A stretch of DNA of 64,000 nucleotides from Candidatus Omnitrophota bacterium (GTDB lineage Bacteria > Omnitrophota > Omnitrophia > Omnitrophales > Aquincolibacteriaceae), in contig JAFGHI010000030.1 of the NCBI GenBank assembly GCA_016930235.1, forward strand, positions 43,834 to 107,833, written 5' to 3'. The notes beneath the pieces were generated by a model. The model had not been told where the DNA came from and did not search any database. It saw only the letters and a list, made by a program, of their open reading frames with translations. A program made the translations under genes and the position numbers. The first letter of the stretch is position 1; every line of letters begins with the position of its first letter. Shown here piece by piece: positions 13,576-54,616 of this stretch.

Positions 13576-16035
13576 TTGAGAATGTTCGATCGTTTTACGG
13601 AAAGAGCAAGGAAAGTCATCATTTTAGCGAAGGAAGAAGCAAAACGGTTTAATCACGATTATATCGGGACTGAACACATCTTGCTGGGATTGATCAAGGA
13701 AGGGGAAAGTGTTGCTGCGGCGGTTTTGCAGAATCTTGGGTTGTCCCTTGATACGATTCGATTGGAAGTCGAAAAACTGGTCCAGTTTGGACCCAGTACC
13801 ATCGTTTCCGGAGATATTCCGTTTACTCCGAAAGCCAAGAAAGTGATTGAACTGGCAATGGATGAGGCGAGACGGCTGGGGCATAACTATATCGGGACAG
13901 AACATCTTTTGCTGGGCTTGATCAAGGAAGGCGAAGGCGTAGCGAGTCATGTTTTAATGAATGTCGGCCTTGATTTAAACAAGGTTCGTGCAGAAGTCAT
14001 TAAGCTTCTGGGTTCGTCAACTCCCAGCGGGTCGGGGGGCGGACCCGGCGGGGGAGGCGGGGTTGGAACGGCGCGCGGCAAGACAAAAACTCCGGCATTG
14101 GATTCCTTCGGTCGTGATTTGTCCACTTTGGCACGGGACGGCAAGCTGGATCCGGTTGTCGGACGTTCGGATGAAATCGAGCGTGTGATTCAAATCCTTG
14201 CGCGCCGTACGAAGAACAATCCGGTCCTTTTAGGCGAGGCAGGTGTGGGAAAGACGGCCATTGTGGAAGGTCTTGCTCAAAAAATTATCGCGGGGGATGT
14301 TCCCGAAATCTTAGCGGACAAGAGGATTGTTGTTTTGGATCTCGCGCTGATGGTTGCCGGAACAAAATACCGTGGTCAATTTGAAGAACGTATTAAAGCC
14401 GTGATGGATGAAATCCGTCGTACAGAGAATGTGATGATTTTTGTCGATGAGATCCATACCTTGGTAGGAGCAGGGGGAGCGGAAGGCGCAATCGATGCTT
14501 CGAATATCCTGAAGCCGGCCCTCGCACGCGGTGAAATACAATGCATTGGTGCAACGACGTTGGATGAATACCGCAAATATATTGAAAAAGATGCGGCGTT
14601 GGCCCGGAGATTTCAAACAATCATGGTGGATCCGCCTTCGGTGGATGAGTCCGTGCAGATTTTGAAGGGTTTGCGGGACCGATACGAAGCGCATCATCGA
14701 GTCAAGATAACCGATGAGGCCATTGAGGCTTCGGTGAAACTTTCGGATCGCTATATTTCGGGGCGTTTTCTGCCGGATAAAGCGATTGATATCATCGATG
14801 AAGCAGCCTCTCGTGCGAGGTTATCCGTAACGACGCTTCCTAAAGATCTCAAAAAGATTGAAACGGAGATCGAGGCCTTCAAAAGAGAAAAAGAAGCTGC
14901 CATTAAAGCACAGGATTTTGAGAAGGCGGCCAAGCTTCGTGATCAAGAGCGTCAGGCCAAAGAAGAATTGACGCGCGTCAAAAAGAATTGGAAAGAATCG
15001 AAATCGGAAGTTGAAGTCCAAGTCACCGAAGAAGACATTTCGCATATCGTATCGAAATGGACAGGGGTTCCTCTGGCCCGGCTGGAAGAAAAGGAAACGG
15101 CGCGGCTCCTCAGGATGGAAGATGAACTCCATCGCCGGATTATCGGCCAGGATGAAGCGATCCGGGTCATTTCCCATGCGGTTCGCCGCTCACGTTCGGG
15201 TTTGAGAAATCCGAGGCGTCCGATCGGTGCGTTTATTTTCCTGGGGCCGACCGGCGTTGGCAAAACGCTTCTCGCACGGGGGCTTGCGGAATTTATGTTT
15301 GGTGACGAGGATGCCATGGTGGCTATTGATTGTTCAGAATATGGAGAGAAGTTTAATGTTTCGCGTTTAGTGGGTGCCCCTCCCGGGTATGTGGGGTATG
15401 AAGAGGGAGGACAATTGACTGAAAAGGTACGTCGGCGGCCTTATTCTGTGGTGTTGTTTGATGAGATTGAGAAAGCCCATCCCGATGTTTTTAACATCAT
15501 GCTTCAAGTGATGGAGGAAGGGCGTCTCACCGATTCTTACGGTCGGAAAGTTGATTTTAGAAATACCATTTTGATCATGACTTCGAACGTAGGGGCGTCT
15601 CTTATCAAACGCGACGGTGATTTAGGGTTCAAACCTCAGATGGAAGATATTAATTATGAATCATTAAAGCGAAAGCTGCTTGATGAGACAAAAAAGGTCT
15701 TCCGTCCTGAATTTTTGAACCGTGTGGATGATACGATCGTTTTTCATCCGCTCACTCGCCAGGATCTCGAGCAGATTATCATGATCGAATTGCGGGAAGT
15801 GACTGACCGGTTGAAAGATAAGAAACTGGACTTGGATCTCTCTCCCGAGGTCATGAAATTCTTGATCGACAAAGGCTATGACCCTATCTTCGGTGCACGA
15901 CCGCTTAGACGTACCATTCAACGGTATATCGAAAATATTTTGGCTGAGGAGATCCTTTCCGGGAAGTTCAAGGAAGGGGATAAAATTCAGGCGGTTTTGC
16001 GGGGAGAGCAGATTCAATTTGAGAAAACATCTTAA
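13576..16035 (+). CDS. clpC: ATP-dependent Clp protease ATP-binding subunit ClpC
   Basis: It has doubled Clp_N repeats, two AAA+ modules ([16 protein letters not shown]) and a UVR linker ([10 protein letters not shown]). Confidence 0.9.
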
Positions 16036-16051
16036 TTCCGAAGAGGGGTTT

Positions 16052-17965
16052 ATGCGGTTTGGTTTTTGGCGTGTCTTCATAGGAAGTTTTTTGCTTCTTT
16101 CATGCCTTGCGGGGATTCCCTACCTTTGGGTGACTTCGGAAGTTCAAAAAGACGAGTTTAAGGCGCTTGCTGAAAAAAAAGCAAGCGAATTTCTAAGCGC
16201 CCATGTCGAGATCGATCGCATTCGTGTCGGGATGATCAACCGTGTGGCCTTGAGCGGGCTTAGGATCCGGTCGCAAGCGAAGGACGATGACGCTTACCGG
16301 ATTCATGTTGATCAAATTGTTTTTCGGTATCATCCCCTTGCGTTTTTAAGCCGCAAGCTGTCGGTTCCCTCGGGGATCATTTTGCAGGCCCCGAAACTGC
16401 TGGTCAAACAGACGGAGTTCTCCTATGACCTGCTTAAGGATTTTAAATTCGGTACGGGTGCGGAAAGTGTCTCGTCGCTTGAGTTTAAAGGGGGCGAGAT
16501 ATTTATCTCGGTTCCGGGATTCCGATCCAATATTCATGTGCAGAATATCAATGGGGTGTTAAGACCGCAAATGAATGGCGAAATTCGTGTGAATTTAAAA
16601 GGCCATTTAAAGGGTTTGCTTAACGGTGAAGCGAAATTGCGCGGGATTGTCGCGCCCTTTGAGAGGCGTCATGATTTGGATCTTGAATTGGATTCAGTCA
16701 GTTTAAATGATGAACTTTCGATCCCGCTCAAGGATATGAAGGGCAAGATTCGATGGGTGAATCAGGAGTTTTATTTTGATGGTGTCCAGGCATCCGTTTA
16801 TGGGTGGGATACCTTGATTAAAGGAGAGCTCAAAAATCTTCGAACGGCACCCGTTCTTGCTTTCAGTTGGTCAGCGGGCAAGAAATATCCGGCTTTGATG
16901 CTGACCTTCTTGGCGGATTTTTCAAATGAATATGTTGAAGGCAGCTTGCAGTGGTTGAAAGAAGACAAGCATGTTTTTCGAGGGAATATCAAGCGAGAAA
17001 AATGGAATTTTATATTTAACGATGTTTTGGTAGATGACCAATATTCAGGTAGCGGCCATCTGGATGTGGAATCCGGATACTCCCGTTTTCAATTTCAAAG
17101 AGGGGCGCAGCGTTTCGCCGCGCAGACAAATTTGCGTGATTTGAACTTCCATCTTGCTTTTAATCTGGAGCACGCCAAAATTTACGGACTCGATTTTGTT
17201 ACCTCAGCCGAGATTGAACTCAAGCCGACGAGATCTTGGGAAGAGGGAAGGCTATGGAGTTTCGACGGTCTTTTCCGAACGGATTATTTTGTCCTGGAGT
17301 ATGCGCCATTTTCGGATCTCCAAGGCCGTTTTCAAATTAACTCGTTTGGGGTTCATGATATTTTTTGTTCTTGGGGGCACGCTTTTGAAATGAACGGTGA
17401 TATTTCATTTACATCAAAACGTCCCGAGGGAAAATTCGTGCTTCAGGTTAATGGGTTTGATTTAGCGGGCGTCAAGAATTTTGCTTCAAAACCTTTACCG
17501 AAAACGTTGGGAGGGTATTTGGAGGGTAAGTTGAAGATGGAAGGTGTTTTATCAAAACCGGAGATCTCCGGTTCTTTCAGTGTCAAAGACGGCGTTCTAG
17601 GAAAACTGGAATACGACCGCGGGATGATTCATTTTCATGGTTTTGCGCCTTATCTGCCGTTAGAAGATTCGCGAATTTTAAGGGGCAGAACCGAGCTTTA
17701 CTTAAGGGGGGCCTTGGATCTTTCGCTTGCCAATATGTTTCACGGCATTAGGATTGAAACGGCCGACCATTTTGTTTTGTGGAAAGGTTGGGAATTTACG
17801 ACCAGTGATACAGAAGGGGATCTTGAAATCGATCATATCATTTCGAGACTTCCCAAGATTGCTGTCAAGGCTGGCCTGACGACCGGAGGGGCTACTTTAG
17901 GCGATACGGATAATATGCAGCAGGATGAGGGGTATGTTGCCATTGGACCGAAGGTCCGGTTCTAA
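16052..17965 (+). CDS. Membrane-anchored periplasmic protein, AsmA/TamB-like (putative)
   Basis: It has a single N-terminal TM segment followed by a long beta-rich region. The C-terminal G-x-L-x-G periodic repeats (GGYLEGKLKMEGVLSKPEISGSFSVKDGVLGKL) are reminiscent of the AsmA_2/DUF490 domain. It sits directly upstream of mlaEFD. Confidence 0.4.
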   Translation: MRFGFWRVFIGSFLLLSCLAGIPYLWVTSEVQKDEFKALAEKKASEFLSAHVEIDRIRVGMINRVALSGLRIRSQAKDDDAYRIHVDQIVFRYHPLAFLSRKLSVPSGIILQAPKLLVKQTEFSYDLLKDFKFGTGAESVSSLEFKGGEIFISVPGFRSNIHVQNINGVLRPQMNGEIRVNLKGHLKGLLNGEAKLRGIVAPFERRHDLDLELDSVSLNDELSIPLKDMKGKIRWVNQEFYFDGVQASVYGWDTLIKGELKNLRTAPVLAFSWSAGKKYPALMLTFLADFSNEYVEGSLQWLKEDKHVFRGNIKREKWNFIFNDVLVDDQYSGSGHLDVESGYSRFQFQRGAQRFAAQTNLRDLNFHLAFNLEHAKIYGLDFVTSAEIELKPTRSWEEGRLWSFDGLFRTDYFVLEYAPFSDLQGRFQINSFGVHDIFCSWGHAFEMNGDISFTSKRPEGKFVLQVNGFDLAGVKNFASKPLPKTLGGYLEGKLKMEGVLSKPEISGSFSVKDGVLGKLEYDRGMIHFHGFAPYLPLEDSRILRGRTELYLRGALDLSLANMFHGIRIETADHFVLWKGWEFTTSDTEGDLEIDHIISRLPKIAVKAGLTTGGATLGDTDNMQQDEGYVAIGPKVRF

Positions 17966-33621: not shown

Positions 33622-33630
33622 TGGTACAAT
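33622..33630 (+). promoter_or_regulatory. Extended -10 element (TGgTACAAT) upstream of the ClpX-like gene
   Basis: This is a sequence motif only. Confidence 0.3.
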
Positions 33631-33664
33631 ACACTTCTTTTATACAATTAAATGAGGGGGCGTT

Positions 33665-35221
33665 ATGGCTGAACCCAGGGATCCGAATCAGGCACAGAGG
33701 GATATGATGGAAAACATGAGGAGGATGATGAGCCAATTTGGCACACGTCCGGATCCTCAGGCTGAACGGGTCAGGGAACAAGAGGAAGAGAAACAGAGGC
33801 AGAAACGCAAAGAAGTCCTTTCCTTTGATCTCAAACCCAAAGATGTCAAAAAGTATTTGGATCGGTACGTCATCAAGCAAGAAGATGCCAAACGGGTTTT
33901 GGCCACGGCGGTTTGTGACCATTACAACCATGTCAAACGCCAGCGGGAGAAAGGCAAAAGCCGGCACTATGTCAAACAAAACGTTTTGATGCTGGGTAAG
34001 ACGGGGGTTGGGAAGACTTTCCTTATTCGGAGTTTATCCGAACTTATCGGTGTCCCTTTTATAAAAGCGGATGCGACGAAATTCAGCGAAACGGGTTATG
34101 TCGGAGGTGACGTTGATGATCTTGTGCGGGACCTAGTTCACAAGGCCGATGGGGATATGGAGCTTGCCGAATGCGGTATGATCTATATCGACGAAATCGA
34201 TAAGATTGCAGCTCCCTCGAATGTTCAGGGGCGTGATGTCAGCGGGAGCGGTGTTCAAAGGGGACTTTTGAAAATTATGGAGGAAACCGAAGTGCCGCTT
34301 CGTAATCCCCAGGACATTCAATCTCAGATTCAATCGCTTGTTGAGTTCCAACAAAAAGGCAAAACGACACGCCCGATGATTAATACGCGGAATATCCTTT
34401 TCATTGTCAGCGGTGCCTTTGAGGGGCTTGCGGCCATTACGGAGAAAAGAGTCAAATCTTTAGAGATCGGTTTTTCGTCATCGGCCCCGAAACATATCCC
34501 CAAAGAGGACCTTTTCAGGGCATCGAAAACGGAAGATTTTATACAGTTTGGGTTTGAACCGGAATTTATCGGCCGCCTTCCTGTCCGTGTGATCTGTGAT
34601 CCATTGAGTGCACAGGACCTTTATACTATTTTGACCGTCTCGGAAGGCTCCATTTTGAGGCAATACGAGGAATCTTTCCGCGCGTACGGCATTGAAATCC
34701 AGTTCAATGATGATGCCTTATGGGAAATCGCCAAAAGGGCCTCAAATGAAGGAACGGGTGCACGGGGTTTGGTCACGATCTGCGAAAAGATCTTCCGGGA
34801 CTTGAAATATGAGCTTCCTTCCAGCAGGCTGAAGTCGTTCCGGCTCACCCGCGAGATGGTGGCTTCGCCGAAGAAAGGAATGGAGGAATTGCTCCAGGAG
34901 GAAAGGGAGGAAAAGATTCGAGAAATAGAGCTTGAGATTACCGAATTCGAAAAGATTTTTTCCGACAAAAATGGCATTGCTATTGAGTTCGATCCAAAAG
35001 GGCGTCGAGCCATTCAAGAACACGTGTTAGAAGAGAGTGTTCAAGTGAAACCTTTCTTAGAAAATCTGCTTTCAAATTATCCCCATGGTTTAGAGCTAAT
35101 TCGCAAAAAGGAGCCGCGTCATAAGTATGTGTTAAATCAGGACGTGGTTAAGGACCCCAACCATTTTCTGGAAGAGTGGATTAAGAATACTTATGAAACC
35201 GGGCCTATAAAGCAGCGGTAG
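33665..35221 (+). CDS. ClpX-like AAA+ ATPase lacking the N-terminal zinc-binding domain, with a ~140-aa C-terminal extension
   Basis: It has a Walker A (LGKTGVGKTF), a Walker B (MIYIDEIDKIA), a VQRGLLKIMEET box, an IGF-like loop (SLEIGFSS) and a sensor-2 (GARGL). The first 70 aa contain no Cys. Confidence 0.7.
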   Translation: MAEPRDPNQAQRDMMENMRRMMSQFGTRPDPQAERVREQEEEKQRQKRKEVLSFDLKPKDVKKYLDRYVIKQEDAKRVLATAVCDHYNHVKRQREKGKSRHYVKQNVLMLGKTGVGKTFLIRSLSELIGVPFIKADATKFSETGYVGGDVDDLVRDLVHKADGDMELAECGMIYIDEIDKIAAPSNVQGRDVSGSGVQRGLLKIMEETEVPLRNPQDIQSQIQSLVEFQQKGKTTRPMINTRNILFIVSGAFEGLAAITEKRVKSLEIGFSSSAPKHIPKEDLFRASKTEDFIQFGFEPEFIGRLPVRVICDPLSAQDLYTILTVSEGSILRQYEESFRAYGIEIQFNDDALWEIAKRASNEGTGARGLVTICEKIFRDLKYELPSSRLKSFRLTREMVASPKKGMEELLQEEREEKIREIELEITEFEKIFSDKNGIAIEFDPKGRRAIQEHVLEESVQVKPFLENLLSNYPHGLELIRKKEPRHKYVLNQDVVKDPNHFLEEWIKNTYETGPIKQR

Positions 35222-35249: not shown

Positions 35250-36371
35250 ATGAAAACGGGTATTGCGCATTTGCCGCTCCACGGCGGAAAAGCACCGCGC
35301 TGGCTTTTTGACAGAATGACAAAATTGGCCCGTGGAATGGTCATGGTCATTATCGAAGAATATGGCCCTGAAGAGATGCTCAAACGGTTATCGGACCCTT
35401 ATTGGTTTCAGGCGTTCGGGTGTGTGCTGGGTTTCGACTGGCATTCAAGCGGTTTGACGACGACCGTCGGAGGTGCTTTGAAGGAGGGCCTCCGTGATGT
35501 CGAGCTTGAGATTGGCTTCTTTGTGGCGGGCGGAAAAGGGGGAACGTCGAGAAAGACACCTCAGGAAATCGAAACGGTGTCAGAAAGAACAGGGATCGAT
35601 GCGAAACCTTTGGTCTATGCAAGCCGGATGGCGGCTAAAGTCGATTCCGCGGCTTTACAGGATGGTTTCGAGTTGTACCACCATAATTTCTTTCACACAT
35701 CGAGCGGCCGGTGGTGTGTTGTTCAGCAGGGAATGAATAAAGAAAACCGTTATGCGAGGCGATATCATTGGCTCGGGGATAAGGTTTCTGATTTCGTTTG
35801 TGAACCTCACGCAGCGGTTTGTTGTGATTTCCAGACCGCGGTCTTGAATATGGTTCACCGCGAGAGTGAAAAAGCCAGACAGAGGTCGGTTGTGATTTCA
35901 AGACATGATCCCGACAGAACATTCCATGAGCTTGAGGCCATAGTTCGTTTGGATATGCCCAGACGCCATGGGATTCGGGAGGAATTCGATATCGACCCTA
36001 AACGATTTCATAAGGTCTTGCTCAAAACCTATGAATATCAGCCGAATGGTTTTGAGACATTATTAAGTATGCAGGGGATAGGACCGAAAACAATACGGGC
36101 GCTGACCTTGATGAGCGAACTTATTTACGGGGAACGGCCGAGTTATCAAGATCCGGTCCGCTATAGTTATGCCCATGGGGGAAAAGACGGGTTTCCCTAT
36201 CCCGTTGATCGTAAAACTTATGATCAATCGATTGATTGTCTTCGATTGGCCCTTGATCGGTCAAAAATCGACCGATCCGAACGCATTCATGCTCTTAAAC
36301 GTTTAGTCGCATTTTATGACAGCAGATCACCCCAACGAAATCAGAATAGGGTGACGGGAGGATTGCCATGA
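35250..36371 (+). CDS. Conserved hypothetical protein (possibly the DUF763 family)
   Basis: It has a conserved-looking N-terminus (LPLHGGKAPRWL...DWHSSGLTT). No catalytic motif was recognised. Confidence 0.4.
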   Translation: MKTGIAHLPLHGGKAPRWLFDRMTKLARGMVMVIIEEYGPEEMLKRLSDPYWFQAFGCVLGFDWHSSGLTTTVGGALKEGLRDVELEIGFFVAGGKGGTSRKTPQEIETVSERTGIDAKPLVYASRMAAKVDSAALQDGFELYHHNFFHTSSGRWCVVQQGMNKENRYARRYHWLGDKVSDFVCEPHAAVCCDFQTAVLNMVHRESEKARQRSVVISRHDPDRTFHELEAIVRLDMPRRHGIREEFDIDPKRFHKVLLKTYEYQPNGFETLLSMQGIGPKTIRALTLMSELIYGERPSYQDPVRYSYAHGGKDGFPYPVDRKTYDQSIDCLRLALDRSKIDRSERIHALKRLVAFYDSRSPQRNQNRVTGGLP

Positions 36372-36784: not shown

Positions 36785-38533
36785 ATGAATCCTGAAGAAT
36801 TTGAATCCCTCAGCTCTGAAGAGCAAATTAAAATTTTTCATAAGAGCTCGTTTAAAGAAAAAGGAGAGCTTATCCTGCATTCCCATCATCCGGAGGCTTT
36901 GACTCATTCCCTGTCTCAGGAAGAACTTTATCTGACGACTCGCGAAATGGATATTGAGGAAAGAAGCGAGATCATCCGTTTTGCTTCAAGACCTCAACTG
37001 TATTTTGTTACGGATGTTGATTGCTGGGAAAAAGACAGGATTAGTACGAGCGGATTTACCACATGGATGGAGATTCTCCTGAAATCCGGGGATCATCAGC
37101 TCTTGGCATGGCTGACAGGGATGGATTACGAGACGATCGTTGCGGGTTTGAAACGGATGATTCGGGTTGAGAAACCCGAGCGCGAATATGCGATGGATGA
37201 TGTTTTGGGGGATGTGCCCTATTTTACAATCGATAACTATTATTTTATTTTTGTGAAAGAGGAACAGCTTGAAACCATGCGGAGGACCTTTGAGATTTTG
37301 TTCGAAAATTACCGGGGGCGGTATGTGGCGCTTTTAGAAGGCGTTCTTAGCGAGATTGAGGATGACCTGGAGGAAGAGGCGTATCAGAAACGTGAGCAGC
37401 GTTTAGCCGAGAGGGGATTCCCGGAACCTGAAATTGCTCACCGGATTTACCGGCCGATGACACCCGAGGAATTTCGTGAGTCTCCGCTTAAATCAAAGGA
37501 AGGCGATAAAGCCGAAGGGGCTATCGTCTCGGAAGTTTCATTGCCTCCCAATTATCTGCGCATGTGGTCGGAGAACAGGCTCTTTCTGGATGATGTTTTG
37601 TTGTCTCTCAGAGGCGAGGAGATAGAAATTCAGGAGGGTATTCAGGAAGAATTGGCCTGGCTGTCCAATAAAACCATTGCTTGCGAGGGGTTGGTCTTTT
37701 CTTCAGAAGAAAATGTGAAGCGGGGAGTTGAAAGGGCGCGGAATTTTGTGAATTTGGGGCTTGAGATAGTAAGCGGGAAGGATCTTGAGGTTGCCAAAAA
37801 AATTGTGAAAACAAGGTGGCTTGAAAACATCTTCCGTGTAGGGGCCGGGGCCCTTATCCCATTACGCGAAAAGAGCATGAAATTAGTCCGCATACTATGG
37901 AAAGGTGACCAGGAGGGTTTTCTGAGATTTCTTGACTCTCCGTATGGATCGATTTTGAAGGGATTGCTTTTGCGTGTTCCCGATCATTACGATGATCAAG
38001 AAAAAAACAACCTGGATCATTTGCGTGATTTTCGGACGGCTGAAGATATTCAAAAGGATGAGCATAGTCTTGAACAGATTCGGTTGGTTATGACGTTTTT
38101 ATCCAAGCGTTTTCCTGTGTTATGGAATGATGTTTTGAACGGGCGAGGTCCAGAATCCCTGTTTCAATTATTGGGAACACTTTATGCGCAGTTTGTGCTC
38201 TGGGGGCAAGTCAAGAATCATGTTCTAAGCTCTCAGGAAGTGATTCAATTTATCCGGTCAGCCTTTGACCCAGAAGGAGCTCGAAGAGTATTGAAGCATG
38301 AGATGAAAAAGAAATTCATGGATACCTTTTTTAATGAGGAGGATCAAAATTCCTTAAAGTCGTTTTGGGGGATCATTTTCAGTGAGATGGAAGATGAATT
38401 AGGCAGATTAAATATCGAGAAGGGTTTGCGGCCTGAATATATCGGGATTCTATCGGTGGCTTCGGGGACGAAACCGGCAACAAAAAAAATCGAAAAGAGA
38501 AAAAAGAAAAAACTCTCGGGGAGCACGAATTAG
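36785..38533 (+). CDS. Hypothetical 582-aa soluble protein with a Lys-rich C-terminal tail
   Basis: It is a long ORF with coding-like composition. No domain was recognised. Confidence 0.5.
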   Translation: MNPEEFESLSSEEQIKIFHKSSFKEKGELILHSHHPEALTHSLSQEELYLTTREMDIEERSEIIRFASRPQLYFVTDVDCWEKDRISTSGFTTWMEILLKSGDHQLLAWLTGMDYETIVAGLKRMIRVEKPEREYAMDDVLGDVPYFTIDNYYFIFVKEEQLETMRRTFEILFENYRGRYVALLEGVLSEIEDDLEEEAYQKREQRLAERGFPEPEIAHRIYRPMTPEEFRESPLKSKEGDKAEGAIVSEVSLPPNYLRMWSENRLFLDDVLLSLRGEEIEIQEGIQEELAWLSNKTIACEGLVFSSEENVKRGVERARNFVNLGLEIVSGKDLEVAKKIVKTRWLENIFRVGAGALIPLREKSMKLVRILWKGDQEGFLRFLDSPYGSILKGLLLRVPDHYDDQEKNNLDHLRDFRTAEDIQKDEHSLEQIRLVMTFLSKRFPVLWNDVLNGRGPESLFQLLGTLYAQFVLWGQVKNHVLSSQEVIQFIRSAFDPEGARRVLKHEMKKKFMDTFFNEEDQNSLKSFWGIIFSEMEDELGRLNIEKGLRPEYIGILSVASGTKPATKKIEKRKKKKLSGSTN

Positions 38534-39016: not shown

Positions 39017-40633
39017 ATGACGACTTATTCGTATGATGCAGTCATATTTGATTTAGATGGTGTGATCACAAAAACGGCCCGCGTTCATGCTCAGTCGTGG
39101 AAGGTTGTTTTTGACGATTACTTGCTCTACCGATCGAAACGATACAAGGAGCCGCTCCGGGAATTCGATATAAGTTCTGATTACCTGACTTATGTCGATG
39201 GGAAACCTAGGTATCAGGGCGTTAAGAGTTACCTTCAGTCGATCGATATCGAAGTCCCTTTTGGAGATCCTTCAGATCCGCCTGATAAAGAGACGATTTG
39301 CGGGATCGGTAACCGTAAAAACTCGATCTTCAGTGAGGTTTTAAGGAAACGCGGCGTTGAAGTTTTTCCCAAGACGATAGAGCTGGTCAAAGCCCTTCAT
39401 GAGAAGAAGATTCGCGTGGGTGTCGCGTCATCATCAAAGAATTGCCAGCTCATCTTAAAGTCGGCCAATATCGACCATTTATTTGAGACGCGTGTGGACG
39501 GAGAGGTTTCCATGGAACTGGGGCTTACGGGAAAACCCGAAGGCGATATCTTTGTGAAGGCAGCAGAAAATTTGGGGGTCTTGCCGGCGAGGTCGGTTGT
39601 GGTGGAGGACGCCACCTCAGGTGTTCAGGCCGGACGAAACGGCGGATTCGGTTTTGTTCTGGGTGTTGCAAGAAAAGAAAATGAAAATGAGCTGCTCGCC
39701 AATGGTGCCGACATCGTGGTGAAGGATTTGGGTGATATCAATATGGAAATCATCGAGCAATGGTTTCAAAAGAAAGCGCGGCCGCTTTTTCAGGAATGGG
39801 AGCACCCAACATCGAAATCGGATTCTCTGCCACCGAAAGGGCCTGCCGGAGGGGAGATTTTTATCAACCCGTGCCAATTAAGAGCAGGCAAAGACCTTTT
39901 TTCTTCCGGGAAAAAATTTGTTTTCTTTTTAGATTATGATGGGACCTTGACCCCGATTGTCTCAAGGCCTGATCTGGCGGTTTTATCCCCTTCGATGAAA
40001 GAAGTCCTGGAGCGTTTGATGAAGAAACATATGGTATCGATTGTGAGCGGCCGGATGAGAGAGGATGTCCAAAAACTTGTTGGGATTCAGGGTATTTTTT
40101 ATGCAGGGAGTCACGGATTTGATATTTTGGGGCCGGGTTTCTCGATGATCCAGCCGAAAGCAAAAGAGACCATCCCGGTTATTTCTACGATCATCAAGAA
40201 GCTTCATAAAGAATTAGGCGATATTCCGGGGGCCTTGATTGAAGAAAAGAAATTTAGTGTGGCTGTTCATTACAGACTGGTAGAAGGGCAATCCCTTGCG
40301 CGCATTCAAACAACGGTGGAGCGGATCGTCAGCAAACACGAGAATGTACGCATGATGAGCGGGAAGAAGGTATATGAAATCTTACCCAATATTGAATGGA
40401 ACAAAGGCAAGGCGATTCGGTGGATCATGAAGGCGCTCAAGTTATCTTGGGAAGAATGCTCCGTTTTTTACATCGGGGATGATGTAACCGATGAATTTGC
40501 CTTCAGAACAATACGGACACGCGGAACCGGAATTTTGGTTTCGGACGAATCGAAACCATCTTCAGCCGATTTTCAAATCCAGACACCTGATGATGTCAAA
40601 AAACTCTTCGAGAAAATCATTGCGGCGGCATAA
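39017..40633 (+). CDS. Fusion of a beta-phosphoglucomutase-like HAD domain with a trehalose-6-phosphate phosphatase (OtsB-like) domain
   Basis: The N-terminal domain has VIFDLDGVIT and KPEGDIF, consistent with beta-PGM. The C-terminal domain has FFLDYDGTLTP and GDDVTDE, the trehalose_PPase motifs. Confidence 0.75.
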   Translation: MTTYSYDAVIFDLDGVITKTARVHAQSWKVVFDDYLLYRSKRYKEPLREFDISSDYLTYVDGKPRYQGVKSYLQSIDIEVPFGDPSDPPDKETICGIGNRKNSIFSEVLRKRGVEVFPKTIELVKALHEKKIRVGVASSSKNCQLILKSANIDHLFETRVDGEVSMELGLTGKPEGDIFVKAAENLGVLPARSVVVEDATSGVQAGRNGGFGFVLGVARKENENELLANGADIVVKDLGDINMEIIEQWFQKKARPLFQEWEHPTSKSDSLPPKGPAGGEIFINPCQLRAGKDLFSSGKKFVFFLDYDGTLTPIVSRPDLAVLSPSMKEVLERLMKKHMVSIVSGRMREDVQKLVGIQGIFYAGSHGFDILGPGFSMIQPKAKETIPVISTIIKKLHKELGDIPGALIEEKKFSVAVHYRLVEGQSLARIQTTVERIVSKHENVRMMSGKKVYEILPNIEWNKGKAIRWIMKALKLSWEECSVFYIGDDVTDEFAFRTIRTRGTGILVSDESKPSSADFQIQTPDDVKKLFEKIIAAA

Positions 40634-43082
40634 AAAGAAAAAGTCAAAAGGGGAAGTCCTTTCTCCGTGGTCGATTACCTATTTAGGGTTTGATCCTTGC
40701 CAAGAAGGATTGAGGGAAGCCCTTTGTACTTTGGGTAACGGGTACATGGGGGTTCGTGGGGCCTCACCGCAGGTGGATGCTTCGGATGATCACTATCCGG
40801 GCATGTATTTGGCGGGACTTTACAATAAGACACCTACCAAGATTGCAGGGCGGACCATTTACAATGAAGATATGGTGAATTGTCCGAATTGGATCCATAT
40901 TACGTTTCGGATTGGTGAGGGGGAGTGGTTTACTCCGAAATCCGAGAATATTCTTGAATATTCCCAGGAACTTGACATGCGCGCGGGGTGTTTGAAAAGG
41001 AAAATGCGGGTCAAGGATAGTCGCGGACGGATTACGCTTGTTGAAACGGAGCGGATTGTTTCGATGAAGGATCCCCATCTTGCGGCCATCCGCCATCGAA
41101 TGACACCCCTTAATTATGATGGCTATCTGAGTATCAAGTCGACCCTTGACGGGACCGTCAAGAATTGGGGGGTTAAGCGATACCGGGAGCTCAATTGCCA
41201 ACATCTCAAACACAAACGGGCTAAACGAATCGGCAGGGATGGCATTGCTCTTTCTGTCATGACGACTCAATCCAAGGTCGAGATTGCCGAGGCATCTGTC
41301 CTGCGATGTTTTTCGAACGGAAGAGAAATTAAGCCAAAGTTTAAATTTTCGCTCGATAGAAAAGCGCCGATCTCACAGGAGTTGTGGGTTCGCGCTAAGC
41401 GCAAGAAGAAGTACGATTTTGAAAAGGTCGTAGCGGTTTATACTTCGAGAGATGCCGGCGTCCAAGACCCGTTCCGCGCGGCTATTAGGGCCGTCCGTCA
41501 AGGAAATCGTTTCGAGACCTTGAAAAAAGAGCACGCTGAATGCTGGAATGAATTATGGCGGAAGTTTGACGTCGAAATTGAGGGGGACCTTTTTTCTCAA
41601 GCCGTTCTTCGTTTACATATTTTCCATTTACTCCAGACCGCATCTTTGCATAATTCAAAGATCGATGCAGGATTACCTGCAAGAGGACTGCATGGTGAGG
41701 CCTATCGAGGGCATGTCTTTTGGGATGAGCTTTTTGTGATGTCTCTCTTTGACCTTCATGCCCCCGAAATTTCGAAGGCGTTGTTGAGGTATCGCTACGA
41801 AAGGCTGCCCAAATCCAGGAAATATGCTACCCAAAACGGGTATCGCGGCGCGATGTTTGCTTGGCAGAGCGGCTCGACAGGTGTGGAGGAAACACAGATT
41901 GTTCATCTTAATCCTATGTCGGGTGAGTGGGGACCGGACGCCAGCCGGATTCAACGACATGTTTCGTTCGCGATTGCTTACAACATGTGGGCTTATTGGC
42001 AAAGGACGGGTGATCTTAAGTTTTTTTCTTCCTGCGGCGCAGAGGTATTGTTGTCCATTGCTCAATTTGGGGCGAGTCTGGCGAAGTTCGACAAAGGTGA
42101 CCGCCGTTATCATACCGACGGCATTATGGGGCCCGATGAATTTCATGAGTACCTCCCCGGGGCTAAAAAGCCCGGTTTTCGTGATAATGCCTACACAAAT
42201 TTAATGATTGTATGGACGCTTTTGCGTTCAAGGGAAGCCTTGGAGATTCTCCCGGCATCTGATCGCAAACGTTTAATTAAAAAACTCGGGATTACCCGCA
42301 AGGAATTAACGCGGTGGGATAACATTATACATCAAATGAATGTTTATGTTGCCTCCGACGGCGTTATTAGCCAGTTTGACGGTTATTTCCGGTTAAAGGA
42401 ATTAAACTGGGATGCTTACCGGAAGAAGTACGGCAAGATCGGACGGCTGGATCGCATCTTGAAAGCTGAGGGCAAATCGCCGGATGATTATAAGGTGTCA
42501 AAACAGGCCGATCTCTTAATGCTTTTTTATATCCTGCCCATCGGTGAGATTGAAGAATTGTTTAATCGATTGGGATATGTCTTTGATCCAAAGTTGCTTA
42601 CGATCAATTATCATTATTATGAACCCCGGACCTCCCACGGTTCAACGCTCAGCAAAGTGGTTCACGGGTATTGTGCGCATTTGATGGGAAAATCCAAGGT
42701 TTCGTGGGATTGGTTTCTTGAAGTTTGCCGCTCCGATATCCATGACACACAGGGCGGAACAACCCCCGAAGGTATTCACTGCGGGGTGATGGGAGGATCG
42801 CTGGATATGGTTCAGCGGGCATTTGCAGGTGTCCATATTTTAAGCGACCGGGTCAAGATTAATCCAAGATTGCCGAAAGCCTGGCGCAAACTGCATCTGA
42901 AGCTCTTCTGCCGCGGGCATTGGATGGAATTTTGGATCAACCATCATCGGATCACTTGTGTGTTGGAGAGTTCTCCTCAGAAACCTTTTCCTCTTCCTGT
43001 GGAAATTGGTGGAAAGCGCGTGGATGGAATAGGGAATCAAAAGAGATCTTTTTCCTACCGCTCGCATATTGAGTCGATTTAA
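40590..43082 (+). CDS. Glycoside hydrolase family 65 disaccharide phosphorylase (trehalose, trehalose-6-P or kojibiose phosphorylase type)
   Basis: The N-terminus WSITYLGFDP...LGNGYMGVRG is typical of GH65, as is the (alpha/alpha)6 core. The start is uncertain: the ORF opens at 40491, 40590 is the likelier start, and either way it overlaps the upstream gene. Confidence 0.8.
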   Translation: MMSKNSSRKSLRRHKKKKSKGEVLSPWSITYLGFDPCQEGLREALCTLGNGYMGVRGASPQVDASDDHYPGMYLAGLYNKTPTKIAGRTIYNEDMVNCPNWIHITFRIGEGEWFTPKSENILEYSQELDMRAGCLKRKMRVKDSRGRITLVETERIVSMKDPHLAAIRHRMTPLNYDGYLSIKSTLDGTVKNWGVKRYRELNCQHLKHKRAKRIGRDGIALSVMTTQSKVEIAEASVLRCFSNGREIKPKFKFSLDRKAPISQELWVRAKRKKKYDFEKVVAVYTSRDAGVQDPFRAAIRAVRQGNRFETLKKEHAECWNELWRKFDVEIEGDLFSQAVLRLHIFHLLQTASLHNSKIDAGLPARGLHGEAYRGHVFWDELFVMSLFDLHAPEISKALLRYRYERLPKSRKYATQNGYRGAMFAWQSGSTGVEETQIVHLNPMSGEWGPDASRIQRHVSFAIAYNMWAYWQRTGDLKFFSSCGAEVLLSIAQFGASLAKFDKGDRRYHTDGIMGPDEFHEYLPGAKKPGFRDNAYTNLMIVWTLLRSREALEILPASDRKRLIKKLGITRKELTRWDNIIHQMNVYVASDGVISQFDGYFRLKELNWDAYRKKYGKIGRLDRILKAEGKSPDDYKVSKQADLLMLFYILPIGEIEELFNRLGYVFDPKLLTINYHYYEPRTSHGSTLSKVVHGYCAHLMGKSKVSWDWFLEVCRSDIHDTQGGTTPEGIHCGVMGGSLDMVQRAFAGVHILSDRVKINPRLPKAWRKLHLKLFCRGHWMEFWINHHRITCVLESSPQKPFPLPVEIGGKRVDGIGNQKRSFSYRSHIESI

Positions 43083-50668: not shown

Positions 50669-50851
50669 ATGAGAAAAACTTTTTTGGGGCTCCTTTTCAT
50701 TGTCGCGCTGCACGCGGTTTACACGTTTCGCGCCTTTCCTGTCTTGGATTTGGCGTTTTCGACGCCCCTCCTGAGCATTGATTACGGAACTCATTATTTT
50801 CAAACTCGGCAAACCTTAGGATTCGAGAAGATACGAATTTATCTCTCATGA
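50669..50851 (+). pseudogene. Decayed N-terminal remnant (~50 aa) of a third paralog of the downstream membrane-protein genes
   Basis: FRAFPVLDLAFSTPLLSIDYGTHYFQTRQTL aligns to the N-termini of the two downstream proteins (VFPVYQLDPGTPILINDFSIHHYQTEQML and VFPVQKLDLQTPILTHDMAFHHYQTQQAL). It then diverges and stops. Its stop overlaps the next ATG (ATGA). Confidence 0.45.
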
Positions 50852-52722
50852 AAAAAACGATTCTTTTGCTGCTTTTACTCGTTCTTGCGCAAGGATTATT
50901 TATTTATCGAGTATTTCCCGTTTATCAATTGGATCCCGGGACGCCGATTTTGATTAATGACTTTTCGATTCATCATTATCAAACCGAGCAGATGCTCTAT
51001 TTATTGAAACATTTCGGCAAGGTTTCGGGGTACGATCCTTTCTTTATGGCGGGTTATCCCGGCGTTGTGGTGAATTTGACGGATAATTACGGAGTGGCTT
51101 TCACCCTTGGTTTGTTGTCGATGTGGCTTCCTTTGGCGATTGCCGAAAAGTTATTTCTTATCGGCATGCTGTTCCTATTTCCCATTATTATTTATCTGGC
51201 AGCCGTTTGCTTAGGGCTGAGCCGGTCTCAGAGTTTTTTAGCCGGGATCCTGTTAGTCGTGGTGATGCAATATCATGAGTATTACCGGTCTTTGATGAAC
51301 TGGGGGCTTTATAGCTTTGTGATCTCTATCTTTCTATCGATCCTTTGGTTTTCGCTGATTGTCCGGTATTTTAAAGAACGAAGTCGGAGAAAATGGCTGG
51401 CCGCGCTTCTGGTGGGGGCTTATACCGTATCGGTTCATCCGCTTTCGGTGCCCATGTTTTTGAGCTTCCTTGGACCGTATCTTATCTTCGATGCCAAGAA
51501 ATTGACACGCCGCTTCTTTAACGGTCTTTTGGTGATGATGCTGTTAATCGTTCTGGCCAACAGTTATTGGATCGTCCCGTTATTGCTTCACAGCGGTTAT
51601 TATCATCAGGAAGCGATCTATCAAAAGGCGTTTGGGTTTGAAAAATTCATCAAAGATTTAATGAGTGTTGACCAAGCCATCTTTCATATCCTGATGGTCC
51701 TATCCGTGATCGGAACGCTTATTTCATTGCGAAAGAAAAAAATAGAAGCTCCGGTCGTCCTGGCTCTTTGGTGTGCCTTTTTTATTTTCTACGGCATCAG
51801 TTATTTCGGGGAACATTCGCTGGTTCAGAATTACTTTTCACATATCGAACCCGCAAGGTTTATCACCGCGGCTGTTTTTTTGATCCCGCTCTTGACGGTT
51901 TATGGGATCTCCGGTTGGGGGGAGGAGCGGATCCGGAATCTAGCTGTTCTCTTGATCTTCTCGATGATCGCGATGCAGGCATATTGCTTAAGTTCGATTC
52001 AACATCAGGATAACTGTACGGCAAGTCGTATCAAGAGGGTTCTGTGCGGGAACATGTGCCAACCGACGGAATGGGGAAAGGATATTATGGCTGAAGGAGG
52101 AGACAGGCTCGTGCGTCGAATTCGCGAGGTCACAGATCCGAGTGCGCGAATCTTATTGGAAGATCACATTTGGGACTTTGTGTATTGGGATTCACGTTTA
52201 CCGGCTTTAATGTCGATGCTAACAGAGCGAAGCTATATCGGGGGCCCTTTCCCGCACTTGTCGACAAAATATAATTTTGCGAACTTCTCAAGCGGGATGA
52301 TCTTTGGAAGGGCCATCCAGGAGATCCCGATCGGTGAGTTGATGGAGTATATGAAGCTCTACAATGTCGGATGGGCTGTTATTCATAGCCCCGAGGCCAC
52401 TCGATATTTTCAAATGCATGGAGTTCGATTCCGGTTTCTCGGCAAGGTACCGGGCCCCGAGGGGTGGGAGTTTAGATTTTATCGAGTAGCCTCTGAGAGG
52501 AATTATTTTGTTCGAGGCAAGGGCAAGGTTACGATGGAATGGAACGAATTAAAATTATCCGGATTAAGTGAGGGTGAAATTATTTTAAAGTTTCATTACG
52601 CAAGGGACCTTCGGACGAAGCCGCCCGTTTTAATCCAAAAGGTCGATTATTTGGATGATCCCATGGGGTTTATCAGATTGGAGAACCGTGAGGGCTATGA
52701 CACGATCCGGATTACTCAATGA
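50848..52722 (+). CDS. Large polytopic membrane protein with a C-terminal soluble domain (unknown family, GT-C-like architecture)
   Basis: It has ~9-10 predicted TM helices in the first ~370 aa, followed by a ~250-aa hydrophilic domain. Confidence 0.6.
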   Translation: MKKTILLLLLLVLAQGLFIYRVFPVYQLDPGTPILINDFSIHHYQTEQMLYLLKHFGKVSGYDPFFMAGYPGVVVNLTDNYGVAFTLGLLSMWLPLAIAEKLFLIGMLFLFPIIIYLAAVCLGLSRSQSFLAGILLVVVMQYHEYYRSLMNWGLYSFVISIFLSILWFSLIVRYFKERSRRKWLAALLVGAYTVSVHPLSVPMFLSFLGPYLIFDAKKLTRRFFNGLLVMMLLIVLANSYWIVPLLLHSGYYHQEAIYQKAFGFEKFIKDLMSVDQAIFHILMVLSVIGTLISLRKKKIEAPVVLALWCAFFIFYGISYFGEHSLVQNYFSHIEPARFITAAVFLIPLLTVYGISGWGEERIRNLAVLLIFSMIAMQAYCLSSIQHQDNCTASRIKRVLCGNMCQPTEWGKDIMAEGGDRLVRRIREVTDPSARILLEDHIWDFVYWDSRLPALMSMLTERSYIGGPFPHLSTKYNFANFSSGMIFGRAIQEIPIGELMEYMKLYNVGWAVIHSPEATRYFQMHGVRFRFLGKVPGPEGWEFRFYRVASERNYFVRGKGKVTMEWNELKLSGLSEGEIILKFHYARDLRTKPPVLIQKVDYLDDPMGFIRLENREGYDTIRITQ

Positions 52723-54616
52723 AATAAAACCGCCTAAAGTGTCAGCGATCTTCATGATCGTTCTCCTGATGGGTTTGCAGATTATCTTTGTGGTGAAGGT
52801 TTTCCCGGTGCAGAAACTTGATCTTCAAACGCCGATCTTAACCCATGACATGGCTTTCCATCATTATCAGACGCAACAGGCACTTTATTTGCTGAAACAT
52901 TTCGGCAAAACTTGGGGATATGATCCTTTTTACATGGCCGGTTATCCCACGGCGGTCGTGAATATGACGGATAATTTCGGGGCTGCCTTTGCGGTCGGAT
53001 TTCTTGCGTTTTTTCTGCCCTTGGCTTTGGCCGAAAAGGTTTTTCTGTTGGGGATAATGATTTTATTTCCCGTATGGATCTTTTGGGCAGCTAAAAATTT
53101 CGGATGCAGCGACCAGGAATCCTTCCTTTCAGGAATAATAGTGACATTGGTTTTACAACATCATCCTTTCTATGTCAGCATGATGAACTGGGGACTCTAT
53201 AGTTTTGTGCTTGCGGCGGCATTCTCGGTATGTTGTTTTTCGCTCATCGTTCGTTTTGTTGAAAGGCAGGATAATAGGGCTTGGTTATGGATGACCATCC
53301 TCGGGAGCTATCTGGTGTCGGTTCATCCGCTTTCGGTGCCGCTCCTTTTTTTGTTTCTCATACCGTATCTTATTCTTTCGAAAGAGGCTTGCCAGTTTAA
53401 TAATTTGATTCGAATAACGGCATCTTTTCTCGTGATGTTTTTCATGAACTTATACTGGATCTTGCCCCTTCTAAAGGCAAGCCCTCTGTACAAGCATGTC
53501 CCGACATATGTTCAGGCATTCGGAATAGAACAGTGGATGGCGGATGTCAAAGATTTGAAGCTTGTCCTCTTCCATGTATTTGCCCTCATCGGTGTCATGG
53601 CACCTATTTTTGTGTGCAAATCAGAAAAAACAAGCCGAAATTGGGTCTTATCGCTGGGGACGGCCTTCATGATCTTTTATGGTTTATCTTATTTTGGGTT
53701 TTACGGGCCTTTCAAATATTCATTAGCCCATATTGAACCGGGGCGGTTCATCGTTGTCGCCATATTTGTGATTCCCTTGCTATCGGCTGTGACCCTAAGC
53801 GAAATTGCCCGGAGCCATATTCGGAAAATGAATATATTGTTAATTGCTTTTGTTTTTTTGTCCCAACTGTTTTGTCTTTATTCCGCGGGAAAGATCAAGA
53901 AAGGGGATTTTATTTATCAAAAATGCGATCTATTGTTTTGTTCGAGTTATCGTGAGCATTCAAGATGGGGAGACGATGTCATGGCCGAGGGCGGCCAGGC
54001 TTTAGTGGATGCGATTAAACAATACACCGATTCTTCTGCCCGTATCTTATTGGAAGATCACACATGGGCTTGGGCTTATTGGGAATCGAGATTGCCGGCA
54101 TTGTTGGCGGGATTGACCGGACGGGAGTATATCGGAGGCCCGCTTAATCTTAGGATCCAACATCAGTTCGCGCATTTTGAAATCGGGAAATTATTTGGCC
54201 GATCTATTTTAAGTCTTCCGGTTGCGAAATTCTTAGATTATGTAAGGCTCTATAATATCGGCTGGGCTGTCATCCATAGTGATGAAGCCAAAATGTATGT
54301 CAGGCGGCATCCGAAAAGGTTTACCTACTTAACAAGTCTACAAGGCGCTTACGGTATAAGATTTGATCTTTATCGGATCGCAAATCATGAATCTTATTTT
54401 GTTAAGGGTGAAGGTAAAATCGAGCGTGTCGGATGGAACGAGATTGTCCTGAGCAATCTATCCAAGGGACCCGTAGTCATCAAGTATCACTACTTTGAGG
54501 GTTTGAAGACGGATCCAAAGGTGGAAATATCCCGAGTAGAAGTTTTGGATGACCCTATAGGATTTATCTCATTAGATAATTCGAAAGGGTATGCCCGGAT
54601 TCGTATAACCACATAA
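52697..54616 (+). CDS. Paralog of the preceding polytopic membrane protein
   Basis: It is collinear with the upstream protein at ~45% identity across both the TM and C-terminal domains. The start is uncertain (52655, 52697 or 52739). Confidence 0.6.
   Translation: MTRSGLLNEIKPPKVSAIFMIVLLMGLQIIFVVKVFPVQKLDLQTPILTHDMAFHHYQTQQALYLLKHFGKTWGYDPFYMAGYPTAVVNMTDNFGAAFAVGFLAFFLPLALAEKVFLLGIMILFPVWIFWAAKNFGCSDQESFLSGIIVTLVLQHHPFYVSMMNWGLYSFVLAAAFSVCCFSLIVRFVERQDNRAWLWMTILGSYLVSVHPLSVPLLFLFLIPYLILSKEACQFNNLIRITASFLVMFFMNLYWILPLLKASPLYKHVPTYVQAFGIEQWMADVKDLKLVLFHVFALIGVMAPIFVCKSEKTSRNWVLSLGTAFMIFYGLSYFGFYGPFKYSLAHIEPGRFIVVAIFVIPLLSAVTLSEIARSHIRKMNILLIAFVFLSQLFCLYSAGKIKKGDFIYQKCDLLFCSSYREHSRWGDDVMAEGGQALVDAIKQYTDSSARILLEDHTWAWAYWESRLPALLAGLTGREYIGGPLNLRIQHQFAHFEIGKLFGRSILSLPVAKFLDYVRLYNIGWAVIHSDEAKMYVRRHPKRFTYLTSLQGAYGIRFDLYRIANHESYFVKGEGKIERVGWNEIVLSNLSKGPVVIKYHYFEGLKTDPKVEISRVEVLDDPIGFISLDNSKGYARIRITT

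Follow-up and report, generated by a model that had tools for sequence, protein, structure and literature searches.

The DNA analyzed here is a stretch of 64,000 nucleotides (nt) from a Candidatus Omnitrophota bacterium (contig JAFGHI010000030.1, positions 43,834 to 107,833 of the forward strand), termed the window, and the gene of interest within it encodes a ClpX-like AAA+ unfoldase. In the open reading frame (ORF) list of the window, this gene occupies positions 33665..35221 of the + strand, exactly where an earlier note made from the sequence alone (the original prediction) had placed it, and forms a complete coding sequence of 518 uninterrupted codons followed by a stop. A protein search detected an NCBI entry on a 126.8-kb contig, 'AAA family ATPase [Candidatus Omnitrophica bacterium]', that was 100% identical to the 518-amino-acid (aa) product. 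A gap of 69 nt separates the gene from tsaE upstream, and 28 nt separate its end from a DUF763 gene, also on the + strand, downstream. A Shine-Dalgarno-like GAGGGGG is present at 33654..33660 (+), with the ATG 4 nt downstream, and an extended −10-like sequence, TGGTACAAT, is located at 33622-33630 (+) inside the gap after tsaE. Both assignments are based on resemblance to a consensus only, and a scan of the region detected promoter-like and terminator-like sites around the gene no more commonly than in shuffled sequence. The ORF is real and intact and encodes a genuine ClpX-related AAA+ protein.

Conservation of this protein is expressed throughout as column counts over 130 non-redundant family members, with the residue numbers of the window protein; all features described are on the + strand. 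Pfam searches detected AAA_2 at residues 105-307 and ClpB_D2-small at residues 314-375. The AAA+ large domain (aa 57-311, 33833..34597; Pfam AAA_2/AAA) aligns to ClpX structures and is followed by an AAA+ small, or lid, domain (aa 312-400, 34598..34864) containing the ClpB_D2-small match. Alignment to E. coli ClpX and the family columns located the Walker A box, GKTGVGKT, at aa 111-118 (33995..34018). Residue 112 of this box (codon 33998-34000) is a K in the window protein and a P in 127/130 members (GPTGVGKT), a substitution that remains compatible with GxxxxGK[ST]. The pore-1 loop GYVG (aa 144-147, 34094..34105) had counts of 130, 129, 127 and 130 of 130 for its four residues, while D176, E177 and D179 of the Walker B box YIDEID (aa 174-179, 34184..34201), R304 of the Arg-finger box GFEPEFIGRLPV (aa 296-307, 34550..34585) and T364, G365, A366 and R367 of the sensor-2 TGARGL (aa 364-369, 34754-34771) were each present in 130/130 members. 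The protein, therefore, has the single AAA+ module with Walker A and B boxes, GYVG, Arg finger and sensor-2 that is characteristic of canonical ClpX. Every motif named in the original prediction, including SLEIGFSS at residues 265-272, was recovered and aligned with its counterpart in E. coli ClpX (the E. coli ClpX and ClpP sequences used were identical to the MG1655 record). The ATPase engine is thus complete, and its essentially invariant motifs are under purifying selection.

The ClpX C4 zinc-binding domain is a dimerizing domain that binds adaptors and substrates. At its position, the window protein has an N-terminal leader (aa 1-56, 33665..33832) that is free of Cys, contains 12 K+R and 12 D+E residues and is predicted to form two helices with low confidence. 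The predicted local distance difference test (pLDDT) score of this leader was 48 to 68 in an AlphaFold2 model built from the family alignment, and its helix motif, 'P.PEE.Q....EF', is weakly conserved in the family. Pfam analysis of the 518-aa protein detected no zf-C4_ClpX (PF06689) match, the first Cys is residue 84 and none of the 130 members has two CxxC pairs in the leader, indicating that the N-terminal C4 zinc-binding domain of canonical ClpX is absent. The original prediction of a Cys-free, charged segment replacing the zinc ribbon was correct in all but length, which is ∼56 aa rather than 70 aa. It had also raised a frameshift or misassembly as an explanation for the missing domain; frameshift, truncation and misassembly are excluded because 130 full-length members, spread over several phyla, share this architecture without a zinc domain.

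A presumed ClpP-docking element, the IGF loop RVKSLEIGFSS (aa 262-272, 34448..34480), was aligned with I268-G269-F270 of E. coli ClpX. G269 and F270 were present in 130/130 family members and I268 in 114/130, with the remainder having M or V, while the flanks were variable. Presence of an IGF loop is a further feature of canonical ClpX that the family possesses. As judged from the alignment, this pattern marks a docking tripeptide under functional constraint, and the strength of the constraint makes a partnership with ClpP plausible. A loop of ∼40 aa containing [I/L]GF was present in ClpX, in the ClpC-D2 outgroup and in the family but was deleted in HslU. As the first three groups all have the loop, it is an ancestral element for ClpP docking, retained by the family.

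A different picture was obtained for the RKH loop, the element of the ClpX entry face that recognizes the ssrA tag. This site is occupied by a family-specific segment (aa 212-240, 34298..34384) that is 15 residues longer than in ClpX and reads 'LRNPQDIQSQIQSLVEFQQKGKTTRP' in the window protein. D217 and Q221 are invariant (130/130), G232 is present in 129/130 members and a helix is predicted at residues 218-231. Alignments of the 130 members detected no RKH motif at this site, indicating that the RKH loop of canonical ClpX has been lost, a feature that the original prediction did not mention.

The third departure from ClpX is a C-terminal module (aa 401-512, 34865..35200) consisting of a long helix followed by strand-helix-helix-helix-strand-helix-helix, with a conserved core of 'Y..GL.LI ... 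F.I ... P...L..W...Y'. The order of these elements repeats that of the preceding small domain. Comparison by hhalign of the protein's own lid (residues 312-400) with the extension (residues 401-518) gave a probability of 96.4%, an E value of 1.3e-9 and a score of 52.5, as compared to scores of 10.3 for a reversed control and 9.9 to 14.9 for ten column-shuffled controls. The module matched the canonical ClpX lid with a score of 41.6 over 84 columns, spanning the whole domain, and matched the lid of HslU (28.7) and the D2-small domains of ClpA/B/C (27.6) more weakly. AlphaFold2 modeling with a 55-sequence family alignment produced a mean pLDDT of 82, with the C-terminal module reaching ∼90 in context and 88 when modeled in isolation; hence, of the two terminal regions for which the original prediction had looked to structure modeling, the C-terminal one was modeled confidently and the leader was not. 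When the isolated module was compared to the PDB with Foldseek, the top 50 matches were all ClpX chains (69 to 77 aligned columns, root mean square deviation of 2.6 to 3.4 Å, probability of 0.94 to 1.00), the modest E values of 0.02 to 0.25 being due to the shortness of the domain. The sensor-2 TGARGL is absent from the module, which is, therefore, not catalytic.

On the basis of these profile comparisons and models, the C-terminal module is best described as the AAA+ small (lid) domain of the same protein in a second, degenerate copy; it is new relative to ClpX, yet it is no new fold. The original prediction of a novel extension of ∼140 aa was, therefore, not upheld, as the part past the ClpX homology is a duplicated lid of 104 to 126 aa. 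We know of no counterpart to this tandem lid in ClpX or HslU. A phmmer search of 1.84 billion representatives did not detect the module in other architectures; matches, largely in metagenomic fragments, were confined to protein C-terminal ends. P0157 and P0205, two long matches made up of several stretches, were TPR repeat proteins and were discarded as spurious.

A search of 5.8 billion proteins detected full-length relatives of 502 to 556 aa (median, 517 aa) in Omnitrophota, Acidobacteriota and Poribacteria, with coverage of 97 to 99% and identity of 47 to 63%. Species-representative genomes were scanned with the family peptides DATKFSET and [GN]LLK[LI]ME[ED]T, and at least 595 of these genomes encoded a relative, so that the protein is not a peculiarity of one genome. 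Among the best 80 genome matches, all extended to residue 510 or beyond and most began near residue 1. The family was present in the phyla Omnitrophota, Verrucomicrobiota, Acidobacteriota, Poribacteria and Eiseniibacteriota, the carriers in Verrucomicrobiota belonging to the Chthoniobacterales, Pedosphaerales and Limisphaerales. No description of the family was found in the open-access full-text literature. A plasmid collection contained canonical ClpX only, aligned to residues 56-405. Some of the PLSDB records concerned (H2, H3, H7 and H10; e.g., NZ_LT559118.1, 11.85 Mb) are megabase replicons carrying a housekeeping clpX or hslU and appear to be chromosomes labeled as plasmids.

Several lines of evidence placed the family closer to ClpX than to HslU in architecture. 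The window protein scored 343 bits with the NCBIfam ClpX model NF003745 (cut-off, 359) and 305.7 bits with TIGR00382 (cut-off, 370.75), as compared to 208.6 bits with the HslU model TIGR00390 (cut-off, 362.45). A PDB ClpX was matched at 1.8e-71 and mitochondrial ClpX homologues at 1e-53 to 6e-54. In a Foldseek search with the full model, the top 50 matches were all ClpX, with template modeling (TM) scores of 0.76 to 0.88, and no HslU was present among them. Scores from hhalign were 666 for the family against ClpX, 416 for the family against HslU and 418 for ClpX against HslU. Alignment detected no insertion corresponding to the HslU-type I-domain between the pore-1 loop and Walker B in the family. 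Over shared core columns, however, the family was about as distant from ClpX (37.4% identity) as from HslU (38.5%), and the motifs ATKF.E.GYVG and GVQR.LL were common to the family and HslU.

Bootstrapped neighbor-joining trees of 21 family members also included canonical ClpX (7 sequences, six phyla) and HslU (5 sequences), with Lon, ClpA-D2, ClpB-D2 and ClpC-D2 as outgroups; sampling and trimming were varied in four ways. Such trees are based on simple distances, the sampling was limited and long-branch effects are possible. A superclade of the family, ClpX and HslU was recovered in 199 to 200 of 200 bootstraps. Within this superclade, the family was monophyletic in 183 to 193 (164 to 193 with a further set of trees included), canonical ClpX was monophyletic without the family in 179 to 194 and HslU was monophyletic in all 200. 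ClpX grouped with HslU in 118 to 176 of the 200 bootstraps, while the family grouped with ClpX in 12 to 76 and with HslU in 5 to 29 (5 to 38 with the further set). The firm clustering with HslU that the original prediction had named as grounds for its rejection was, therefore, not observed. Its description of the protein as ClpX-like rather than HslU held for the core, given the lack of an I-domain, the presence of an IGF loop, the bit scores and the structural matches. The protein is not simply a ClpX, as it fell below both equivalog cut-offs and in a clade outside canonical ClpX. As far as these trees and alignments can be relied upon, the family is a separate deep lineage in the ClpX/HslU superclade, nested in neither group and having a ClpX-like architecture. 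A stronger version of this view, which we put forward only tentatively and as possible rather than probable, is that the family may be a third ancient class of the superclade, perhaps branching before the split of ClpX and HslU, which would have kept the ancestral ClpP-docking loop and acquired its own apparatus for substrate selection (the RKH-site insert, the N-terminal helix and the tandem lid). If true, this would represent an unrecognized type of Clp unfoldase with which Omnitrophota, Verrucomicrobiota, Acidobacteriota, Poribacteria and other phyla operate a separate branch of regulated proteolysis.

The genomic neighborhood was compared with that of 84 other loci encoding the family. The genes tsaE, thiL, DUF763, dgkA, DUF6178 and mtnA were found within 10 kb of the family gene in 0/84 of these loci, including those of other Omnitrophota. 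Operon context was, therefore, rejected as a functional clue, and the association with tsaE, thiL, DUF763 and dgkA reported in the original prediction was uninformative. Similarly, clpP, hslV or a second clpX was present within 10 kb in 0/84 loci, and the 64-kb window contained no clpP, hslV or canonical clpX. Unbiased clustering of flanking ORFs from 83 loci detected no conserved partner gene; the commonest neighbor was a membrane adenylate/guanylate cyclase (22-23/83 loci). Downstream of the ClpX-like gene, Verrucomicrobiota often encode a membrane protein having an adenylate/guanylate cyclase domain and TPR (e.g., L007:9718-10989), and the cyclase neighbor probably reflects synteny at the level of the lineage. 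This lack of conservation of the neighborhood indicates that the ClpX-like gene behaves as a stand-alone unit.

The window also encodes a ClpC-type double-ring unfoldase of 819 aa at 13576-16035 (+), with two Clp_N domains, AAA, AAA_lid_9 with a UVR motif, AAA_2 and ClpB_D2-small. An LGF tripeptide for ClpP docking is present at residues 683-685 of this protein. As the window encodes a ClpC with such a loop, ClpP is likely to be present in the organism and to be encoded elsewhere in the genome, outside the window.

Comparison with E. coli ClpX and the TIGR00382/NF003745 proteins summarizes the position of the family with respect to canonical ClpX. The fold of the AAA+ large and small domains is shared (TM scores of 0.76 to 0.88, identity of 35 to 40%), as are the Walker boxes, GYVG, Arg finger, sensor-2, the IGF-loop insertion and the lack of an I-domain. 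The family differs in lacking the C4 zinc domain and RKH loop, in the 15-aa-longer RKH-site segment, in possessing the leader of ∼56 aa and the extra C-terminal lid copy of ∼110 to 125 aa, in a gene that never adjoins clpP and in forming a clade outside the seven ClpX sequences. HslU (ClpY) belongs to the same superclade, lacks a zinc domain, has the ATKF.E.GYVG and GVQR.LL motifs and exhibits ∼38% core identity. HslU has an I-domain of ∼130 aa past the pore-1 loop, no IGF loop and adjacency to hslV, whereas the family has none of these traits.

The closest characterized analogue, by architecture and published description, is ClpX3 of M. xanthus (MXAN_2743, WP_026113955.1), which was the sole characterized zinc-domain-less bacterial ClpX that we found. 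Neither a zinc domain nor an RKH motif is present in this protein, which is ∼43% identical to E. coli ClpX (PMC11423568). Its gene is isolated rather than part of a tig-clpP-clpX operon (PMC11423568), and accessory clpX copies in M. xanthus are not linked to clpP. ClpX3 is induced in stationary phase, insoluble and deletable, but it is needed for growth at elevated temperature beside the canonical ClpX1P1, with the deletion mutant being heat sensitive (PMC11423568). The family resembles ClpX3 in lacking both of these elements and in having a gene apart from clpP. ClpX3 was, however, rejected as a member with the same architecture, as it is a bare core of 356 aa while family members have ∼517 aa with an N-terminal leader and duplicated lid. 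Other precedents are mitochondrial. Yeast Mcx1 is a ClpX homologue that has lost the zinc domain, and mitochondrial ClpX has a lineage-specific insertion on the substrate face (bioRxiv 10.64898/2026.02.23.707539). Human CLPX and yeast Mcx1 thus resemble the family in elaboration of the entry face and, for Mcx1, in loss of the zinc domain, but they are more distant from it than bacterial ClpX, their insertion is another element and they have no duplicated lid.

ClpX is among the AAA+ machines that are understood best, and its zinc domain and RKH loops largely account for its choice of substrates. Given the features of the family, we lean slightly toward the view that the ClpX-like protein is a hexameric unfoldase of a distinct, widespread lineage that docks on ClpP and selects its substrates in an alternative manner, acting as an accessory ClpP activator. 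The ring would dock on the ClpP peptidase through its IGF loops and feed in unfolded substrates as ClpX does, with the GYVG pore loops gripping these substrates. Three elements of its own (the charged, helical N-terminal leader, the conserved helical insert that occupies the RKH site of the entry face and the catalytically dead second lid) would stand in for the zinc domain and RKH loop and give the ring another range of substrates or adaptors. The second lid, which would be peripheral, may serve as a platform for adaptors or substrates or may brace the ring. As E. coli ClpX mutants in the RKH loop suggest by analogy (cited in PMC11423568), canonical recognition of ssrA tags would not be expected. 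The protein would work beside the ClpC encoded in the same window and, presumably, beside a canonical ClpX.

Some points weigh against this proposal. The extra lid could interfere with ClpP docking; the window protein carries a K112 that, by comparison with the family, seems unusual for Walker A; and there is no genomic linkage to ClpP, as no clpP was present within 10 kb in the window or at the 84 other loci. This last point would also fit a ring that operates independently of ClpP as an unfoldase or remodeling chaperone, in the manner of yeast Mcx1 or the chaperone mode of ClpX, with the lid copy and N-terminal leader as client-binding modules. Loss of the canonical ClpX recognition elements and the absence of a conserved partner gene are also consistent with such a protein, and zinc-domain-less ClpX homologues acting alone have precedent. 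We regard this explanation as rather unlikely because near-invariance of the IGF tripeptide in 130 members of several phyla, with variable flanks, is hard to explain without a partner of the ClpP type; HslU, which is not a ClpP user, has deleted the loop entirely.

Presence of the IGF loop, together with the lack of an I-domain, also argues against the protein being an HslU-type or other non-Clp activator whose partner is HslV or another self-compartmentalizing peptidase (e.g., Anbu or BPH). A core about as close to HslU (38.5% identity) as to ClpX (37.4%), the ATKF.E.GYVG and GVQR.LL motifs held in common and the lack of a zinc domain in either protein would be expected of such an activator, but the score of 209 bits is far below the HslU cut-off of 362, the family joined HslU in only 5 to 38 of 200 bootstraps, hslV was absent from the window and the 84 loci and HslU was absent from the top 50 structural matches, making this explanation highly improbable. 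An artifact, whether a canonical clpX altered by truncation, frameshift or chimerism or a pseudogene in decay, is scarcely credible. The unusual K112 is the sole feature in keeping with it, while the ORF is uninterrupted and preceded by a good ribosome-binding site, five phyla share the architecture over its whole length (median, 517 aa) at 47 to 63% identity and both terminal modules are conserved in sequence (the C-terminal module with a pLDDT of ∼90 and the leader with 48 to 68).

An accessory ClpP activator of this kind, if it is indeed separate and has its own degron code, would be an addition to the short list of ClpA, ClpC, ClpE and ClpX. By keeping the motor and the ClpP-docking loop while swapping both specificity elements and adding a tandem lid, the family provides a natural experiment in the retargeting of a Clp unfoldase. 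The phyla in which the family is common are abundant in soil, in freshwater or in association with sponges, and their proteostasis is essentially unstudied. Database labels for its members are inconsistent, being either 'ClpX' or 'AAA family ATPase', and counts of ClpX genes in the carrier phyla are probably inflated as a result.

Other genes of the window were noted in passing. The DUF763 gene downstream of the ClpX-like gene (35250-36371, +) overlaps dgkA by 4 nt; described as DUF763-like in the original prediction, it proved to be a bona fide, full-length DUF763 (E = 1.9e-136), and a C-terminal 'GIGPKT' stretch in its product resembles a helix-hairpin-helix. Further downstream is a full-length DUF6178 gene (36785-38533, +; E = 4.5e-110). 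Both are conserved genes of the domain-of-unknown-function type, neither has an NCBIfam model and neither is linked to the ClpX-like family elsewhere. Three large ORFs, all on the + strand, had no Pfam match at an E value of ≤1e-5, namely, 15878-17965 (695 aa), 50848-52722 (624 aa) and 52655-54616 (653 aa). As listed, there is an overlap of ∼158 nt between the first of these and the end of clpC and one of ∼68 nt between the other two, and the true starts of the overlapping ORFs are probably further downstream. Long ORFs across positions 1-64000 are nearly all on the + strand, guanine-cytosine skew was positive in every 2-kb bin and cumulative skew rose monotonically, all of which is consistent with the window being located on one leading-strand replichore. 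Positions 39017-43082 (+) encode a HAD-hydrolase/trehalose-phosphatase fusion (538 aa) and, next to it downstream, a GH65 glycoside phosphorylase (863 aa), a pair that suggests a module for phosphorolysis of trehalose or maltose. Finally, the gene at 61075-62664 (+) encodes LMF1 and LMF1_C lipase maturation factor domains (E = 3e-53 and 3e-49, respectively), members of a family best known from eukaryotes.

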